Shown here one piece after another: positions 45,844-63,547 of a stretch of 64,000 nt of DNA. Where the stretch lies: NCBI GenBank assembly GCA_963719515.1, contig CAVRCJ010000011.1, positions 384,001 to 448,000 of the forward strand, read 5' to 3'. Source of the DNA: an uncultured cyanobacterium (GTDB lineage: Bacteria > Cyanobacteriota > Cyanobacteriia > CAKZMO01). A model generated the notes under the pieces. The model searched no databases. It saw only the letters and a list, made by a program, of their open reading frames with translations, and had not been told where the DNA came from. A program made the position numbers and the translations under genes. Within the stretch, counting starts at the first letter, position 1. Every line of letters begins with the position of its first letter.

Positions 45844-47364
45844 TTATTCCGCAGATTCACTGCCATCTTCAAGCGCTTCAGAAGATAGCGGCGATTCGAA
45901 TCCCCGATCGATGTCTTCGTACAGCGCGCGCTCCCCTGGCTCCTCCAAGGGCATCGCCTCCTGAGCGCTGTAGGAAGGCTCCGCCCGCCTCACCTGGACA
46001 TGATGGAGCCTGGGACCATCCATAGAGATCACCGTCATCTCCCAAGGCCCGGTCTGCAGGACTTCTCCCAGCGTCGGAATCTTCTGTAGATGGTGGATCA
46101 AAAACCCGCCCAGCGTCTGGTAGTCGTCGGCGGTAGGGAGCCCCATGTCTAACAGCTCGTTGAGTTCCTCTAGGTCAAGCTGGGCCTGAACCAGATAGGT
46201 TTGGTCCCCCAACAGCCTCACCGGAGAGTCTTCTTCTCCCTCTAGCTCGATATCACCACCGATGATCTCAGCGGTCAAATCCTGAATCGTGATTAGACCG
46301 GCGGTGCCGCCGAACTCATCCACCACCATTACCATCGGCTGCCCCGATCGCTGTATCAGCTGCAGCAGCTCGTGCAGCGGCATCGATTCTGGAACGAAGC
46401 GAGCCGGTTTAATCCAAGCGCCGATGCGGCTGTCAAAGGCGAGGTCATTTTGCACCAAAGGCTGGGCCAGATCCTTGAAGTGAAGAATGCCGCTAATGTC
46501 GTCGAGGGATTCCCCCGTAATTGGGTAGCGAGAGTAGCCGCTGGTGCTTACCTCGTTGAGCACCAGGTTGAGATCAGCGTCTGCTGGAAGGGCGACAATG
46601 CTCGTGCGGGGAACCATAACCTCGCCTACGGTCACATCTCCGAACTCAATAGCGTTGCTCAGCAGCTCCCGCTCATCGGCCTCAAGGCCGGTGGACTCCG
46701 TGGACGTGCTGATGATAATCTGCAGCTCCTCAGGGGTAAGGCGGCTCGACAGGCTCTCAAGCTGATAGGGGACGCCCAGCAGCCGCAGCAGGAAGCGGGT
46801 GGACTGATTGAGCACCCAGATAAACGGGTTAAAGCAGCGGGCGATCGCCATGCTGGGCGGGGCCAGGATGCGGGCCAGCCGCTCGGCATCGATTAGGGCG
46901 ACAGACTTGGGGCAAAGCTCTCCCAAAACAATCTGCAGGTAGGCCACCACGATAAACGCAGCAGGAATGCTGACGGTATGGGCAATCGGCCCCGCCATTT
47001 GAGGGAAGAACCGCTGAAGAATGCCGCTGATGGGACCGGCCAGGGTATTTTCGCTGATCCAGCCGAGAGCCAAGCTAGAGAGCGTAATACCCAATTGGGT
47101 CGTCGAGAGCAGCCGCTCGATGCTGCGCTGCAGCACCTGCACCATCTTCGCCTGGGCATCCCCGGAGGAGGCGAGCTGACTGATGCGCGATCGCCTCACC
47201 GAGACAATCGAGAACTCTGCTGTGACAAAGAACGCATTGATCGCAATCAGCACCGCGATCGCGAGTAGCCTAAAGGCAGTATCCGACAGAGACAGGGGCG
47301 GCAAGGGCGCACCGTTGGTCACTAGTAGGCTAACCTCTAGCAGCCCTGAACCTGAACGCAGCAT
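45844..47364 (-). CDS. Hemolysin/CNNM family protein (DUF21-CBS-CorC); true start probably slightly downstream
   Basis: NAFFVTAEFSIVSVR, GELCPKS, SGYSRYP and VVDEFGGTAG motifs. Confidence 0.92.
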   Translation of the reverse strand: MLRSGSGLLEVSLLVTNGAPLPPLSLSDTAFRLLAIAVLIAINAFFVTAEFSIVSVRRSRISQLASSGDAQAKMVQVLQRSIERLLSTTQLGITLSSLALGWISENTLAGPISGILQRFFPQMAGPIAHTVSIPAAFIVVAYLQIVLGELCPKSVALIDAERLARILAPPSMAIARCFNPFIWVLNQSTRFLLRLLGVPYQLESLSSRLTPEELQIIISTSTESTGLEADERELLSNAIEFGDVTVGEVMVPRTSIVALPADADLNLVLNEVSTSGYSRYPITGESLDDISGILHFKDLAQPLVQNDLAFDSRIGAWIKPARFVPESMPLHELLQLIQRSGQPMVMVVDEFGGTAGLITIQDLTAEIIGGDIELEGEEDSPVRLLGDQTYLVQAQLDLEELNELLDMGLPTADDYQTLGGFLIHHLQKIPTLGEVLQTGPWEMTVISMDGPRLHHVQVRRAEPSYSAQEAMPLEEPGERALYEDIDRGFESPLSSEALEDGSESAE

Positions 47365-55961: not shown

Positions 55962-56032
55962 GGAGCAAATCGTATGACTACACTTAGCATTAGAGCGATG
56001 CACTGTGGCTCTAGTCTTCCCCTCAAAGGCAG

Positions 56033-56441
56033 GCTTGATACCACTGGCGAATTTTATGTCTTGTTGCATCTCGGCTATTTCCTGCTCCGAAGAAGGCCCC
56101 CTTTTCTGGTATGCCCGAAGGGCTTTAAGCCTCCAATTGAGAGGACTTCAGAGAAGTCAGAACTCCTTGAAGTCAATAGCGACAAATAGTATGGCCACTC
56201 GGGTTCCCCCAGAATTGATACCGCTGGCGAATTTTATGTCTTGTTACATCTCGGCTATTTCCTGCCCCGGAGAAGCCCCCTAAATCCCCCAATTCTGGGG
56301 GACTTCAGAGAAGTCAGAACTCCTCAAAGTCAATAGCGGTCAATGGTATAGACGCTGCTTGGGTTCCCCCAGGATTGGGGGCGGAGGGGGCCTCCAGAGC
56401 GTGCAACTCAATTACAAAATATTTCGCCAGCGGTATCAAGC
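56033..56441. mobile_element. MITE-like element with terminal inverted repeats and a duplicated ~180-bp left part
   Basis: GCTTGATACCACTGGCGAA (56033-56051) and TTGATACCGCTGGCGAA (56215-56231) are inverted relative to TTCGCCAGCGGTATCAAGC (56423-56441). Internal CCCCCAATTCTGGGGG-type palindromes. Confidence 0.7.
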
Positions 56442-56590
56442 TTGGCGACAGGGCGCACAGAGAGTTAACCCTTTGGGCCTCGTGCTCGTGCCGTACCAAG
56501 GGCTCAGGCGATCGCCTGCTAGGACTGCGACAAAGACAGCGATCGCCAGTAATCTCATCAGGACAGTGGCGATCGCTGCTTGGATGGCGC

Positions 56591-56869
56591 TTACTGCAGG
56601 CCGCGCAGGCGCATCAGGTAGGCCAAGACCTGCCCTTCTCGGCGGCTGAGCCGCACACCGTCGGGGCCGATGGGCACGGGGCCGGTCCACAGGCTTTGCT
56701 CTACGAGGTAGCGGTTAATGTGCATCAGGTGAATGGTTTCCCGGATGCCTTCTGGGGTGCCAATGAGGATGTGACGCACCACTTCGCCGTCGGGCTGATG
56801 CGGGGGATCGCTCAGGCGAAGCTGTGCCGCCTCAGGGCTGAGGGGCTGCTCGGGGATTAGAAATGTCAT
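56591..56869 (-). CDS. Small hypothetical protein (RHILIG.PEG...TIH.MH family)
   Basis: ATG with an AGAAAGGAA RBS; 92 aa; preceded by a sigma70-like promoter and a structured leader. Confidence 0.75.
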   Translation of the reverse strand: MTFLIPEQPLSPEAAQLRLSDPPHQPDGEVVRHILIGTPEGIRETIHLMHINRYLVEQSLWTGPVPIGPDGVRLSRREGQVLAYLMRLRGLQ

Positions 56870-57090
56870 GGGTTGGGTTCCTTTCTGGTGTAGATGGGTA
56901 GGAAACCCAAGTTTGGCCACCCCTCACAAGGTTGAACCAGTTCGGAGTGGCCGTGGGAAAATAACCACAGCTTTCGAACAGGTCTGCTCTGTTTCGGAGG
57001 TCAGGCGGCGGCTGTCAATGCCACTGGCAGTCGCTGCCGTTATGACCAAAGCTTGGGAGTCGAACTGCGGGATGCAGCTCTCAAGACGAA

Positions 57091-57980: not shown

Positions 57981-58244
57981 ATGACTCAAGTGACTATCGA
58001 GCTGCCAGACCAGGTGGCGAGAGACTTAGAAGCTTATCTCCAGGCTAATTCGCAGGAGAGCTTGGCTGAGCTAATCCATGAGGTTCTGCAGGTTAAGCTA
58101 CCGTCTACTCTGCCCTCTAAGGCGATGCAGGGAAACGATTCTTCCTTGGTTGATTTCTTCCGTAACTCTCCGCTCCAAGCTGTGGCTGGGGAGATTGACC
58201 TGAACCGCGATGATCGCGCTGCTGACGAACGTATTACTCTATGA
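57981..58244 (+). CDS. Putative antitoxin (VapB-like)
   Basis: Small RHH-like ORF ending SLVDFFRNSPL...IDL.RD; ATGA overlap with the PIN toxin. Confidence 0.8.
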   Translation: MTQVTIELPDQVARDLEAYLQANSQESLAELIHEVLQVKLPSTLPSKAMQGNDSSLVDFFRNSPLQAVAGEIDLNRDDRAADERITL

Positions 58245-58663
58245 GGTATTTGCTCGATACCTGTATCATTTCGGAGCTTGTTGCAAAGCAGCCTAACCCC
58301 AAAGTCTTGAGCTGGGTTACAGACCAGCCTGACGAGAACTTGTACTTATCTGTCATTACGATTGGAGAGATTAAGAAGGGAGTTTGCAAGCTGCCAGATT
58401 CTAAACGTAAATCCGCGCTGTCTGCTTGGCTAAGGCAAGACCTCCTAGTTCGCTTTGCAGGCAGAGTTCAAGCCGTCGATATTGAAACTATGCTGTATTG
58501 GGGAGAGCTGCTAGGCCGTTTAGAGACCCAGGGTAGAGCACTGCCGCTTTTAGATTCTTTGATCGCGGCGATCGCGCTTCGAGGTTCTTTTCAGCTTGTA
58601 ACACGTAATGAGAAGGACTTTGATAGAATAGGTGTCTCTATAGTGAATCCATTTGTAGGGTAG
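58241..58663 (+). CDS. vapC: PIN-domain toxin VapC
   Basis: YLLDTCIISE, ITIGEI, D.LIAAIA and LVTRNEKDF...NPF motifs. Confidence 0.93.
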   Translation: MRYLLDTCIISELVAKQPNPKVLSWVTDQPDENLYLSVITIGEIKKGVCKLPDSKRKSALSAWLRQDLLVRFAGRVQAVDIETMLYWGELLGRLETQGRALPLLDSLIAAIALRGSFQLVTRNEKDFDRIGVSIVNPFVG

Positions 58664-58940
58664 TGGTGAGACTCCTGTAGCACTTGTAAGCGATCGCTCA
58701 CACCTGTCAGTAAGCTCAAGACAAAGCATCTCAAAATGAGCCTACCTTGCCTCATAGGCTACTGGAGTAAATTCGGACTATTTTTCTTAACTGTCACACG
58801 GCTGAAATACTGATTCTGTCGTGGAACTGATGAGACTGACCTATAGGTAGGCAATTGAACTCTAGTCACTGTTTAATCGACATTTTGGTAAGTATCTCAG
58901 TTATAGAGTGGTTGTAGCTCTGGGGCAATTACTCTGAGTG

Positions 58941-59027
58941 ATTTAACGATCCCAATCAGCGGCAGCAGGCAACCTCGAACTCCACTGATGTTAAGTTCGA
59001 CCGTCCGCTGCATTGGGGTTGTTATGC
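58941..59027 (-). mobile_element. Integron attC recombination site 1
   Basis: Minus strand: R'' GCATAAC-AACCCCAATG(C)AGCGG(A)CGG...CCGCTGATTGGGATC-GTTAAAT R'; imperfect palindrome with two unpaired bases in the R''-proximal arm. Confidence 0.88.
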
Positions 59028-59238
59028 CGCAATGTTGAAGATAAATAAAAGAATAGCGTAACCTGTTGCATAATTAGTAAGTATGTACTAAAGTACGATT
59101 TATACACTCTGTGCAGTGTTTCAGAGGTGCAGCAGATAAACCTAAGAACTTTCCCAACAGAGTCAATCTTTCCTGATCTTTAAGGACATCGAGAGAAGAT
59201 CTAAGTGATTATATTTCAGATCACTTAGGTATTTTCCC

Positions 59239-59706
59239 ATGCCGCATGACTTTAGAGAGTTTCCCAATCCCCTACGTAATCACTTGAGGGAGCTATTTGA
59301 AACCATGAGCCAACTACAAGAAGAAATTGAAAATCTCAGTGATCGTCTTTCCGATTCAAGGCAAGCCTTTAAACAGAGTATTGAGGATTTCTTTCAACAA
59401 CCAAACCAGAACCCATTCCCTACGGAAGGAACTATTGACTCTGATGTCGAGCAATACACGAGGCTCGTGTCTTATTGTCTAGAGGCAGGGGATACAGAAA
59501 TTTTGGATAGATGGGGAATTCAAAACATCCTTACCAATCCGACCATTCTAGCCTCTAGTAACTACGAGTTATATTACTTAGCTTTCAATAATGCACGAGA
59601 AACATCTAAAACGCCTCTAGAAGAAGAATGCTGGATTAAAGTAATTGAGATGTTTCAAATCTTGCAAAATCCAGGAGGTACACTTATCACTGTAGGAAAC
59701 AGGTGA
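59239..59706 (+). CDS. Cassette-borne divergent phycobiliprotein-like (globin-fold) protein
   Basis: DVEQYTRLVSYCLEAGDTEILDRWGI resembles the phycobiliprotein D..YY.R.V.YCL.AG.T..LDEW/YGI segment. Confidence 0.6.
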   Translation: MPHDFREFPNPLRNHLRELFETMSQLQEEIENLSDRLSDSRQAFKQSIEDFFQQPNQNPFPTEGTIDSDVEQYTRLVSYCLEAGDTEILDRWGIQNILTNPTILASSNYELYYLAFNNARETSKTPLEEECWIKVIEMFQILQNPGGTLITVGNR

Positions 59707-59730
59707 AAGAGGATTAGCACTTTTAAGAGA

Positions 59731-60297
59731 TTATTTATCCTGAGAGCGCCGTGCAGCTTGCTGGGCACGAGCTGCACTAAGGTATTGGCTACTGAGCTGC
59801 TTCGCATTTCTTCGCATTTCTTCGCCTCTACTAACGTCTATGATTTGCTCTAAGAGGCTTTTTATCTCTCTAATAGCTTCCACAGATAGTTCATGAGTTG
59901 CACTTAAATCATCAACATTTTCCCTTAAGGAATAAAGCTCACTATTCTCGGGAAGTGTTGATGCCAAAACTTTCAAACGCTCAAGAGCTTCACTTTTCTT
60001 GGTTTGAAACGAGGAATTTTGTCTCTTTATTTCATATATTTTATCTTTAATATCATCAGCAACCTGCTTAAGTCGATTTCGCTTAGCTTCGACTTCTGAT
60101 TCAAACTTCTTAATTCTGGCAAAGTCTTGAACTCTTTTTCTAAAGCCCTGTATGGCATTCCATATTTGATTACGAGCTAGAAGGCACCCAAATATAACAA
60201 TAACTGCAATTAACGCAGGGAGCTTACTGAGATCCGAAAAATCACCTTTCAAGATATCTTGAACTAAGTCAAAAATTTTCTCAAATATTCAATCCAT
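59731..60297 (-). CDS. Cassette-borne membrane-anchored coiled-coil protein; ATG at 60297 is followed by an in-frame TGA at codon 3 (alternative TTG start at 60252)
   Basis: One TM helix then a long heptad-rich region; ATG GAT TGA ATA TTT is in frame with the 173-aa ORF. Confidence 0.65.
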
Positions 60298-60558
60298 TAG
60301 AAACTCGCTCTTCTAAGGTAGTTGCACAAGCCGAATTATAGTATGCGCTTTATAGATAGCGCGACTTTAGGGATCGTGAGCTATTAGCAGTAGAACATTG
60401 AATTAAGGCAAAAGCCAGCTTAAGCATATTTCAGATTTGAGGGATTTTATACCATTATCCCAAAAATTAAGTAATTCTCAAGAATACTTAAACATGCATA
60501 GTTCAACAGCTTAAAAATTTGCTACAAGGGCTACTGTGTCCCAACCAAAAATTCAGCA

Positions 60559-60646
60559 GCATAACGTTCCGATTGAGCGGCATCAGGTCTGCTGTAACAT
60601 TAGACAAAAAGGTTCCCGGCTGTCCGCTCCAATCGGATTGTTAGAC
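60559..60646 (-). mobile_element. Integron attC recombination site 2
   Basis: Minus strand: R'' GTCTAAC-AATCCGATTG(G)AGCGG(A)CAG...TGCCGCTCAATCGGAAC-GTTATGC R'. Confidence 0.9.
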
Positions 60647-60911
60647 ATCGAGATATTAACTGAATGTAGAACACACATCTATGGCTTTCTTCTAAAAAAC
60701 CAGTTTAGAAAGGCAATAATAGCGACCGCTATCATGGTTATTATTTGAAAAGGATTGAATATCTTAGTTATGCTTTGCATCGTACTCGTTTTAGTTAACT
60801 AGATAGGTTATTTTAGAAACGGTTTTGAATCAGTGTCTTTTGAATCTGGGGAAGATAAATACAAAGCCTTAAAACATCGGTTTTACTAGACTTTCAACAT
60901 TCAGGCGTCCC

Positions 60912-61385
60912 TCAGCGATCTCGGAAACGCTGTAAAGTCATTTGCAGGCTTTTATAGATATTTTTCCAGTCTTGAGCCAGAAAATCTTCTAATCCCTGTA
61001 GGTCCATTTTCTTGAACGTCAACTCACCTCGACTATTCTGAGTCACGCGAAAATTCGCGTTGTACAATCTCAGCATCTCCTCGGGTTGCATTGTTTCTAC
61101 TTTCTTTTCGTAGTTCGAGTACAGAAAAGTTGCGGATAATCCCCCTACTGCGGCAGCTCCTGCCCACCCAATAGGACCAAGGGCAGCTACACCAAAAGCT
61201 CCAAAAACCGCAACCTTTTCCGCAATTTTTTCCCTAGATATTCTCAAAAGTCGGTAATAGATCTTCACAGCATACGAGTACACCTCACCTTTGACTATGA
61301 TTTCATCCCCAACCGCAAAAGAATCGATCCTTGCCAGAACGTCTGTCCAGTCATCATGAGACTGAACGATAGCCACTTTACCCAT
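60912..61385 (-). CDS. Cassette-borne hypothetical protein with a glycine-zipper-like hydrophobic segment
   Basis: GAGG RBS; GAFGVAALGPIGWAGAAAVGG; single gene of the first cassette, in cassette orientation. Confidence 0.75.
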   Translation of the reverse strand: MGKVAIVQSHDDWTDVLARIDSFAVGDEIIVKGEVYSYAVKIYYRLLRISREKIAEKVAVFGAFGVAALGPIGWAGAAAVGGLSATFLYSNYEKKVETMQPEEMLRLYNANFRVTQNSRGELTFKKMDLQGLEDFLAQDWKNIYKSLQMTLQRFRDR

Positions 61386-61461
61386 ACAACCTCATTAACT
61401 CTCTCAATACAAAACACAAGATAAAAAAACTTACTTGCTATTCTAGCCTGGGACTAAAACT

Positions 61462-61480
61462 GTCTAACTATATATTCAAC
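61462..61480 (-). mobile_element. attI-like primary recombination site
   Basis: Minus strand GTTGAAT-ATATA-GTTAGAC: degenerate L box, 5-bp spacer and R box complementary to R'' of attC2; no attC hairpin upstream of it. Confidence 0.65.
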
Positions 61481-61688
61481 GTCAGATCTGCTCGATAACA
61501 CCCCATTCCCCGGATCTTATCAGGCAGATCTGACGGATAACACCCTATTTCTCAGGCTTATCTACCACATCTGACGTCTAACTCCAGAAATCCGGGGTGT
61601 TATCTGTCACTTTTGCTTGATGATCCTAGCCTCTGGAATATTATTTGTCACTTCTGACGGATAACAACACACATAGCCGTGTTATCCG
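61475..61688. repeat. Array of 24-bp palindromic repeats with 17-18 bp spacers
   Basis: Units at 61475, 61517, 61558, 61600, 61641 and a partial at 61682; idealised consensus TTATCCGTCAGATCTGACGGATAA. Confidence 0.85.
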
Positions 61689-61894
61689 GCGATCGCCATG
61701 TGCCATTGACCATGAAAAGCAGTGCAGCGTCGCTGCCGGGCGCAGCAGCTAATCAGGCTACACAGCAAAGTTTAAGATATCCTGACGAAATCTCTCCTCG
61801 CCGACAAGTCCATTCGTTTGCTACGCCGCTTTCCCAGAACTGTAAATCGCAAGCACCCAAGTACTTCATACCGCTATACCGCGATCGCCCCATG

Positions 61895-62095
61895 CACTTA
61901 AGCAAAACCAACAAACGCTTACTGAGATCAAGCAAACGCTTAAGCAAAACCGACTAACCACAAAGCGAAACCTCAAAACACTTAAGCCGTAAGCCATATC
62001 GCTTATTGAGCTATAAGCAACGCTTAAGCGTTTCTCGCTAACGTATAAACGTTGGTCGATAACGCTCAAGCAAAACCAACAAACGCTTATTGGTT
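61895..62095. repeat. Degenerate 21-bp-period tandem repeat (~10 units)
   Basis: CTTAAGC/CTTA core recurs at 61897, 61918, 61939, 61981, 62002, 62023, 62065 and 62086. Confidence 0.8.
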
Positions 62096-62268
62096 ACCCC
62101 AAACCGAGCCCACGCCAAAGGCTCAACCCCACTCGATACAATGGCAGCACAACAGCCCAGACTCAGCGCAGCCTAGATACGCCTCAGCGATCGCCCCCCA
62201 TAGCTGACAAACATGGGGTGCATATGCACCGGCTACAGCGTGAGAATGCTGGTGTTGGATTTCCCCAT

Positions 62269-62376
62269 CTAGGCAAAGGCGATCGCTTTCGATCGTCCGT
62301 GAGCTGTATCGACGCTGTCCCCTTGTAGGCTGCGGCGAAGCGGTACAGGTGTTCCCTGATCAAACAAGATTTTCAT
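62269..62376 (-). pseudogene. 3'-truncated PIN-like toxin (DUF5615 type)
   Basis: MKILFDQGTPVPLRRSL...VDTA then an early stop; TAATG-coupled to the upstream DUF433 remnant. Confidence 0.7.
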
Positions 62377-62501
62377 TAACCTGCTATGCGCTCTAACCTA
62401 GTGAGTTCATAGTCTAGAAGGGACTCCACCTGACTACGTGCTACTCCTGGAAACCAGTCCAAAAATTGATCGATGGAAGCGCTATCTTTAAGATTTTCAA
62501 G
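62376..62501 (-). pseudogene. 5'-truncated DUF433 antitoxin
   Basis: LENLKDSASIDQFLDWFPGVARSQVESLLDYE, the C-terminal half only. Confidence 0.72.
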
Positions 62502-62640
62502 TTATCTTCGCGATGTCGGGTCAGCAGCAGCAGGCAGAGCAGATTGGCCGCCAGCGCCAACAACGCCCATAAGCTCTGCGGTGGGAGCTGCCCCGGTCAT
62601 AAATTGATAGATAGCCCGAGCGAAGACGGCGATCGCTGCT
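62502..62640 (-). pseudogene. Internal fragment of a cation diffusion facilitator (CzcD-like) gene
   Basis: AIAVFARAIYQFMTGAAPTAELMGVVG / frameshift / ALAANLLCLLLLTRHREDN. Confidence 0.6.
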
Positions 62641-62731
62641 GGCACCGCCGCGAGCCGCAATTTGCCACGTTCAAAGCCCTACTTGCCCCAAATGGTCTAC
62701 GCTTAGAGCATATTTTTTTAGAGCCGACTAA

Positions 62732-63547
62732 ATGCGTGTTGAAGCCTGCTGCCAAGCCCTGTTGGAAAACCTGCTGCCCGATCTTGACCCCGATCGCCAG
62801 GGACTCTGCGTGGATGTAGGGGTTGGCACCTTTGCCTTTTACTGCGAGCTGTTTGCCCGGCTGGGGTTCGCCACCGTAGCCGTAGAGCCTTCTCCCACCG
62901 ATAAGCTGCGGGCGCTCTGCCAGCAGTACTCCATCCAGCTCATTGAGCAGTGCCTGTCAGACCAAGTGGGGACCCAAACCCTATACATGGGACAGTTTGC
63001 CAACTTAGCCAACAGCAATTTTAGCTCGCTGGCCGCCGACTGGTTTGGCGCGTCAAGCTCGACTCGCTCAGTGCCAACCCTAGATTTAGCGACCTTACTC
63101 CGCCAGGTCACCGCCCCCTACATCACCGCCTTTAAGCTCGATATTGAAGGGTGGGAGCCGGTTGTAATCCAGCAGTTTGTCGAATTACCCAGCAAGCAAC
63201 TGCCCCAAGTTGTGATGTTCGAGTACGGCGGTGGCGGCAGTCGTGCCCAGGGGTCAAAAGGCTGGTCGCCCAACTTTTTTCAGGGCACGATGACTTGTCT
63301 CGAAGTTTTGCAGCAGCAGGGATACGCCTTTAGCGTTATGGTCGACTATGCCTCTGGTACCCAGGCTAAGGTGTTTGATCTGCAATCTCTAGATTTGGCT
63401 CACGAGTCGCCCTTTTGTGCCAACGGCGTCTACGGCAACATTCTTTGCTTTCACCAACAGCGCTTTTCCACCGAGAGAATACAGCGCATCTGCGCCCCCT
63501 ATCGCGGTGGTTTGGCCAACTGGCTGGTGAGCACCTTCGTCTCCTAA
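62732..63547 (+). CDS. FkbM family methyltransferase
   Basis: VDVGVG, VAVEPSP and FKLDIEGWE..V motifs. Confidence 0.88.
   Translation: MRVEACCQALLENLLPDLDPDRQGLCVDVGVGTFAFYCELFARLGFATVAVEPSPTDKLRALCQQYSIQLIEQCLSDQVGTQTLYMGQFANLANSNFSSLAADWFGASSSTRSVPTLDLATLLRQVTAPYITAFKLDIEGWEPVVIQQFVELPSKQLPQVVMFEYGGGGSRAQGSKGWSPNFFQGTMTCLEVLQQQGYAFSVMVDYASGTQAKVFDLQSLDLAHESPFCANGVYGNILCFHQQRFSTERIQRICAPYRGGLANWLVSTFVS

Follow-up and report, generated by a model that had tools for sequence, protein, structure and literature searches.

A phased array of integrase-type boxes as a putative extended attI site at a relic cyanobacterial integron

An array of phased 24-bp palindromes lies fused to an attI-like site in the genome of an uncultured cyanobacterium, and the question raised by this locus is what the array is and which protein would read it. 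The window, that is, the whole 64,000-nt stretch analysed here (assembly GCA_963719515.1, contig CAVRCJ010000011.1, positions 384,001 to 448,000), had been annotated in a preliminary description, in which six palindrome copies were listed. These copies begin at 61475, 61517, 61558, 61600, 61641 and 61682 with spacers of 18/17/18/17/17 bp, exactly as listed, and each of their eleven half-sites shares 7-12 of its 12 positions with the idealised 12-mer. The phased array is real. Using a de novo detector that seeks phased 12-mers in alternating orientation (inverted half-sites), the window array scored 122.1, compared with 31.5±5.9 (maximum 48.3) for 100 dinucleotide shuffles. The working threshold of this detector, 66, was picked post hoc with the data in view, and 3/300 random windows of the same genome also score at least 66 (the top two resemble coding repeats), so the detector alone is not attI-specific.

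The attI core is present as a GTTRRRY R box (GTTAGAC, 61468-61462) and, 5 bp from it, an L box in inverted orientation (L box end 61474), and the overlap of the first copy with the L box, which had been pointed out earlier, was confirmed, since the first half-site sits in L-box position. When distances are counted on the minus strand from the R-box G, the inverted boxes lie at 6, 48, 89, 131, 172 and 213 bp and the direct boxes at 31, 73, 114, 156 and 197 bp; the L box is the inverted box at 6, so that R and L are 5 bp apart. In the window array the L box recurs every 41-42 bp, making up eleven boxes of 12 bp whose orientation alternates (five pairs set back to back and a single last one), and the array spans from the crossover to about 17 bp upstream of the intI start (Table 1). 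The sixth copy had been regarded as cut off at a HIP1 octamer. In the consensus of 48 full-length homologues the sixth copy is likewise a half-site, and thus it is not a HIP1 truncation; the HIP1 octamer merely overlaps it here.

Table 1 Positions in the window of the array, the attI core and the neighbouring cassette features
Feature	Position	Strand	Basis
Attachment site R box GTTAGAC (attI), crossover G/TT, from first cassette	61462..61468	-	sequence; paralogue similarity stops at box
Simple-site spacer of attI, 5 bp	61469..61473	-	half-site register, L box end = 61474
Unit 1: attI L box (diverged half-site) and inverted partner box	61474..61498	.	copy-1 consensus unlike other copies, 48 homologues
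Unit 2: half-site inverted pair	61517..61540	.	PWM pairs and detector
Unit 3: inverted pair, most degenerate position across homologues	61558..61581	.	mean PWM 12.6 vs 22-24 in other full units
Unit 4: half-site inverted pair	61600..61623	.	PWM pairs and detector
Unit 5: half-site inverted pair	61641..61664	.	PWM pairs and detector
Terminal half-site (eleventh box)	61682..61693	+	half copy in homologues also; HIP1 octamer 61689-61696 overlaps
Probable former intI start codon; gene lost, stop after 3 codons	61698..61700	+	intI starts at same offset in paralogues
First cassette ORF, 157 aa, without Pfam family	60912..61385	-	ORF list and Pfam
Site attC closing cassette 1	60559..60646	-	attC profile seed
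Second cassette region: 173-aa ORF (minus strand, without family) and convergent 155-aa phycobilisome-family ORF (plus strand)	59239..60252	.	
Site attC closing cassette 2	58941..59027	-	attC profile seed
Small ORF and PIN-domain gene past second attC	57981..58663	+	

Three familiar kinds of element were considered for the array and rejected. A MITE or dispersed repeat is out, because every phased pair in the genome lies within attI arrays; a coding repeat is out, because the period alternates between 41 and 42 bp and no ORF of at least 60 aa runs across the array; and a LexA array is out, because the motif is unlike the cyanobacterial LexA operator RGTACNNNDGTWCB. An Rfam scan of 58500-62800 gave 0 matches.

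On the cassette side, attC sites were searched by a loose scan and then by an iterated profile seeded with both window attC sites. These two sites bound minus-strand cassettes, and the profile also picked up relatives of them next to paralogous arrays, again on the cassette side. The earlier proposal of an attI site heading attC cassettes is therefore supported by the GTTAGAC/L-box core together with the attC sites at 60559-60646 and 58941-59027. In the second cassette region, the phycobilisome-family ORF (59239-59706; PF00502, E 6.6e-07) lies against the cassette direction. The small ORF and PIN-domain gene are probably a toxin-antitoxin pair and possibly a third cassette; a closing attC for this pair was not found with the attC profile. 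Further along the window, direct repeats of 71 and 57 bp that carry inverted arms (55974-56444 and 56591-56920) lie beside a 109-aa ORF without a Pfam family, and ORFs resembling it recur by other arrays, including those on contigs C1 and C18, which possibly marks a small mobile element. Elsewhere in the genome, a lone attC was found beside an ABC transporter-like gene (C4, 91761-91846), with no array or intI near it in the stretch scanned (best score 63, within coding sequence).

On the array's far side, no adjacent intI was found within the window, and no intI remnant was detected in 61661-62800 with an intI DNA profile. The genome as a whole gave no intact IntI, and remnants only, adjoining four arrays; the Pfam tyrosine-recombinase search of this genome, which is insensitive, gave 1 match. 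In three of four paralogues the intI N-terminus opens directly after the terminal half-site, the decayed array on C18 also precedes an intI remnant, and in relatives an intact intI adjoins homologous arrays. The array had been described as occupying the place where intI would lie. Given the intI N-termini after the paralogue half-sites, where the intI frame follows the last half copy, and no intact IntI, it is instead the attI-to-intI spacer, and the locus qualifies as a CALIN that kept its attI. It is a relic. After the two C1 arrays (255951 and 277591), the intI remnants end near HIP1 octamers and 21-bp heptad-like repeats follow; in the window, HIP1 octamers occur at 61689-61696 and about 61880, with a similar degenerate 21/42-bp repeat at 61897-62092, and a HIP1-linked intI deletion is possible. 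At three other loci, C18 28927-29128 (L021), L108 and L147, either the remnant intI N-terminus or the array runs on into the final ~20 codons, and these are clean internal deletions of the integrase gene. A similar short GC-rich hairpin-forming stretch follows both intI-less arrays, at 61703-61755 in the window and at about 59690-59740 on C14.

The preliminary description had proposed a PWM scan of this and other cyanobacterial genomes, asking whether phased arrays go with GTTRRRY and attC cassettes. When the array PWM was run against the 5.28-Mb genome, 42 matches of at least 13 bits were obtained, and all phased pairs (19/19) fell within five attI arrays (C11, C14, two on C1, and C18), with no phased arrays outside attI. 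A profile search revealed two more, a decayed array on C18, the sixth, and a partial array on C13. The partial array (about 46958-47057, L171) has the last full unit and the half-site only, with a cassette-like R box directly beside a spacer-like stretch, and may reflect insertion of a cassette at one of the internal boxes, units 1-4 being lost. The window region was matched in 16/61 genomes searched, this genome included. A pattern scan of GTDB genomes, run without reference to intI, found 73 loci, almost all of them under cyanobacterial titles (patterns of this sort recovered about half of the known arrays when tried locally), and 70/73 fit the array profile. An attI core was recognised by a strict expression in 48 of these 70 arrays, an intI match followed directly in 23/70, and an attC lay within 1.5 kb on the cassette side in 23/70, against 4 on the other side, which is consistent with the suggested link of the arrays to integrons. 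In 48 non-redundant full arrays, the consensus of units and spacers is position-specific and the sixth unit is a half-site. Shorter arrays lack whole units and retain the core and the terminal half; unit number ranges from 2 to 6 and changes by whole units with the phase preserved. Of the two pattern matches in viral contigs, one was a chance hit to a single unit and the other an array accompanied by an intI remnant, and a distant blastn search of a plasmid collection gave no match.

Similar arrays are widespread among cyanobacterial integrons. IntI above the family cut-off was found in 124 of 401 cyanobacterial genomes. The window-type motif occurs at 7 of the first 67 full-length IntI loci, all in one 12-row clade (support 99 in a quick tree), and most of the remaining loci have a 40-42 bp period with other half-sites, for example TTAGAC, TTAGGC, TTATGC and TTATAC; in the main clade, the half-sites are literal GTTRRRY-type boxes. 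Among 123 cyanobacterial intI loci picked regardless of arrays and with sufficient upstream DNA, 82 carry arrays scoring at least 66 and 41 fall under the threshold, compared with a maximum of 65.7 in 76 matched shuffles and with 4/52 natural control stretches above 66. The mean period is 41.8 in the window-motif clade versus 40.8 in the other clades. Half-sites are lineage-specific, and in every clade the arrays take their register from the attI L box. Outside cyanobacteria, a long array was present at 0/38 usable loci from Chloroflexota and Pseudomonadota (of 45 given, 1 was not located, 5 were too short and 1 was a masked-base artefact), and at 1/64 usable metagenome loci of unknown taxonomy (80 fetched). 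By eye, one or two palindromic units starting from the L box can be seen at L241, L246, L248, L249, L253 and L281 (Chloroflexota, Pseudomonadota), possibly an ancestral short form of the array. Since some intact integrases have 3 units only or none, the long array is dispensable. Two IntI clades (L026, L027, L031, L036, L041; L052, L062-L066) have intact genes and no detectable long array, and are natural negative controls. In the openly available full-text literature on integrons and attI, judged by titles and abstract openings, no account of such arrays was found.

The evidence for the identity of the binding protein comes from covariation between the half-site and helix αB of the adjacent integrase. 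Half-sites of 95 arrays were aligned on TTA and 80 were kept; kept rows needed an IntI of at least 280 aa, the misparsed L071, L088, L091 and L214 were left out, and two row pairs are duplicates. Residues were counted from the LLD motif, and column 17 aligns to VchIntIA K21 and IntI1 R32. Columns 17 and 20 explain G at half-site positions 4-5 best, with an adjusted eta-squared of 0.67 each and 0.40 for the next (82 rows). Arginine favours guanine, and the rule obtained is that Arg17 with non-Lys20 goes with G (TTAGG, TTAGA, TTATG), and other states with TTATC or TTATA. This post-hoc rule holds at 77/80 loci and misses 3/80, kin among them not being independent. When the tree was made from sequence lacking αB, 9 co-changes were counted for residue 17 and 8 for residue 20; these are the two highest values among 648 binary splits (next 6). 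Third codon positions of codons 1-60 predict the base with an accuracy of at most 0.75, versus 0.93 for codon 20 and 0.90 for codon 17, which speaks against plain physical linkage as the source of the covariation; some third positions reach 6-7 co-changes, but these positions themselves change 15-21 times.

With the rule fixed beforehand, 22 of 24 held-out arrays were predicted correctly (17/18 predicted G and 5/6 predicted non-G; majority baseline 18/24), from 41 loci in new genomes of which 35 were usable. Several scored integrons were present in 16 genomes and both predicted states in 8, and the motif tracks the adjacent integrase, not the host, in 6 of these 8 and fails in 2. The intI remnants of the window's genome carry K17/K20, and G is found in 1/11 window half-sites, the 10/11 without G being as the rule predicts. 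The Chloroflexota two-unit site at L241 is an exception by eye, with G half-sites without Arg17, and half-site positions other than 4-5 track clade rather than single residues. From these comparisons we infer that two αB residues probably set the base at half-site positions 4-5. In the crystal structure, the region of VchIntIA K21 and IntI1 R32 is described as an α-helix binding attC DNA (PMC2791841). Counting against our explanation, the IntI-DNA contacts in the attC co-crystal are described as essentially non-specific (PMC3053210).

The best explanation, to which we give a probability of about 0.7, takes the element for the extended attI of a chromosomal integron in a cyanobacterium that has lost intI by deletion, with the boxes as predicted IntI sites read through αB. 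We propose that the boxes would be docking sites for the integron's own integrase through helix αB, and that extra IntI monomers would be loaded in phase on one DNA face, the function being the least certain part. Such loading could act like DR1/DR2 of attI1, favouring and shaping attI x attC integration and giving cognate-site specificity, and by analogy extra-monomer loading and positioning is most likely the role of the array. In the window-motif clade the array would probably also cover the intI promoter, and it is perhaps also an operator. In the window's genome the site would be an orphan attI, no intact IntI having been found. The IntI reading is favoured by the place of the array, which in paralogues and relatives separates the attI core from the intI start, by the identity of the first half-site with the L box, and by the GTTRRRY-type boxes of the main clade. 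Against it, many arrays persist without intI (a match beside 23/70). The preliminary description had instead favoured a separate, undescribed system with a trans-acting recombinase or a dimeric factor, and this was not upheld, given that the half-site covaries with the DNA-binding helix of the adjacent IntI and that the genome holds only intI remnants.

Compared with known systems, lambda Int arm sites, Xer cer/psi accessory sequences and transposase end arrays likewise add protein-binding sites, set in phase, by which a synapse is shaped. In contrast to these, the extra sites here look like repeats of the core box that the core-binding domain itself would read. The closest likeness is to attI1 of class 1 integrons, which also has a GTT crossover, an inverted L box 5 bp off and extra integrase-type boxes on the intI side, and whose DR1 and DR2 bind IntI1 and favour attI1 x attC recombination (PMC8191803, PMC8946536). 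As in the DR1/DR2 type, the extra boxes at the window resemble the integrase core box, the first half-site being the L box. Unlike attI1, which has two direct repeats within ~65 bp, the window array has ten extra alternating boxes over ~220 bp, reaching to the intI start. On the sequences compared, the array is best read as an expanded counterpart of DR1/DR2. Accessory sequences are stated in PMC8191803 to be absent from most attI sites, whereas arrays are present here at 82/123 cyanobacterial intI loci. The attIA of Vibrio cholerae, a sedentary chromosomal integron, has a chromosomal attI core in common with the window locus; it differs in being described in PMC8946536 as having no direct repeats and appearing to need host factors. 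In contrast to the CALIN or pseudo-integron as outlined in PMC4889954, the platform's attI survives and is recognisable at the window locus.

Other explanations were weighed against the IntI docking array. A serious rival, which we consider unlikely to be the main function and which is compatible with a scaffold role, is that IntI binds the array chiefly for regulation, as an autorepression operator or a titration sink on the integrase that replaces LexA control in the window-motif clade. In this clade the array ends at a median of ~41 nt before the LLD codon, versus ~100 nt elsewhere, so the promoter must overlap the array unless intI is transcribed from further upstream, and a LexA-like box (at most 1 mismatch to the cyanobacterial consensus RGTACNNNDGTWCB, PMC3091678) is found at 0/20 clade loci versus 20/75 others, with 1/66 in the control. 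However, arrays keep the L-box register in all clades, even where they end well short of a promoter region with a LexA-like box, and promoter scans gave little: 3 weak Pc-type sigma-70-like sites versus 1.0±0.9 in shuffles, and no convincing conserved -10 element among 48 arrays. The 22 cassette-direction -10 matches among these 48 arrays are probably a product of the array motif itself. The LexA boxes at these 20 of 75 loci, among them the main-clade loci L029, L023 and L078, lie between the array and the intI start, which suggests that many cyanobacterial integrases are under SOS control.

It is improbable that the array is a neutral by-product, in which the attI core was duplicated by IntI or by slippage, or served as decoy or secondary crossover sites, and was homogenised by gene conversion. 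The range of 2 to 6 units, the near-identical units in some arrays and the cassette-like R box beside an internal spacer in the partial C13 array would fit, but 5.5 units, a position-specific unit and spacer consensus and a terminal half-site are kept across 48 diverged arrays of the window-motif clade. A host transcription factor or nucleoid protein that binds as a dimer to each 24-bp palindrome, and controls Pc/PintI or bends the DNA for synapsis, would suit the dyad symmetry and four-turn phasing, and such factors are reported to act at other integron promoters (PMC8876359). We hold this to be quite improbable, as phased sites are absent elsewhere in the genome, differing motifs share a genome and follow the local IntI in 6/8 cases, the covarying residues sit in the IntI DNA-binding helix, and the motif is unlike the cyanobacterial LexA box. 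Very improbable, finally, is an action of the array as a single-stranded or cruciform structure with attC-like hairpins rather than duplex sites. The strand does fold at -33.7 kcal/mol (z -3.5 versus shuffles), but this folding follows from the inverted repeats, any run of which folds alike, and in the predicted structure the R box stays unpaired and an attC-like R'/R'' stem is missing.

In conclusion, the new element is an expanded phased accessory array of attI at a dead integron, integrons and accessory attI repeats being already known. How integron integrases recognise their own attI is the question that these arrays address, because the universal GTT triplet, as stated in PMC4792948, cannot discriminate the own attI. 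Each array provides 6-12 natural box replicates per integron, paired with the enzyme sequence. The attI of most integrons has been described as unknown and hence unsearchable (Cury et al. 2016, PMC4889954); the array is a searchable attI signature, and it marks sites of intI loss in cyanobacterial CALINs. As a tentative generalisation, which we rate at somewhat below even odds, most cyanobacterial integrons may have a phased multi-monomer attI scaffold and a two-residue αB self-recognition code per integron, with an SOS-independent intI autorepressor in the window clade. The arrays lend themselves to a two-residue swap experiment and may offer a way to orthogonal integrase/attI pairs. The window locus itself is a relic; what matters is the architecture across the clade and the testable two-residue recognition rule.
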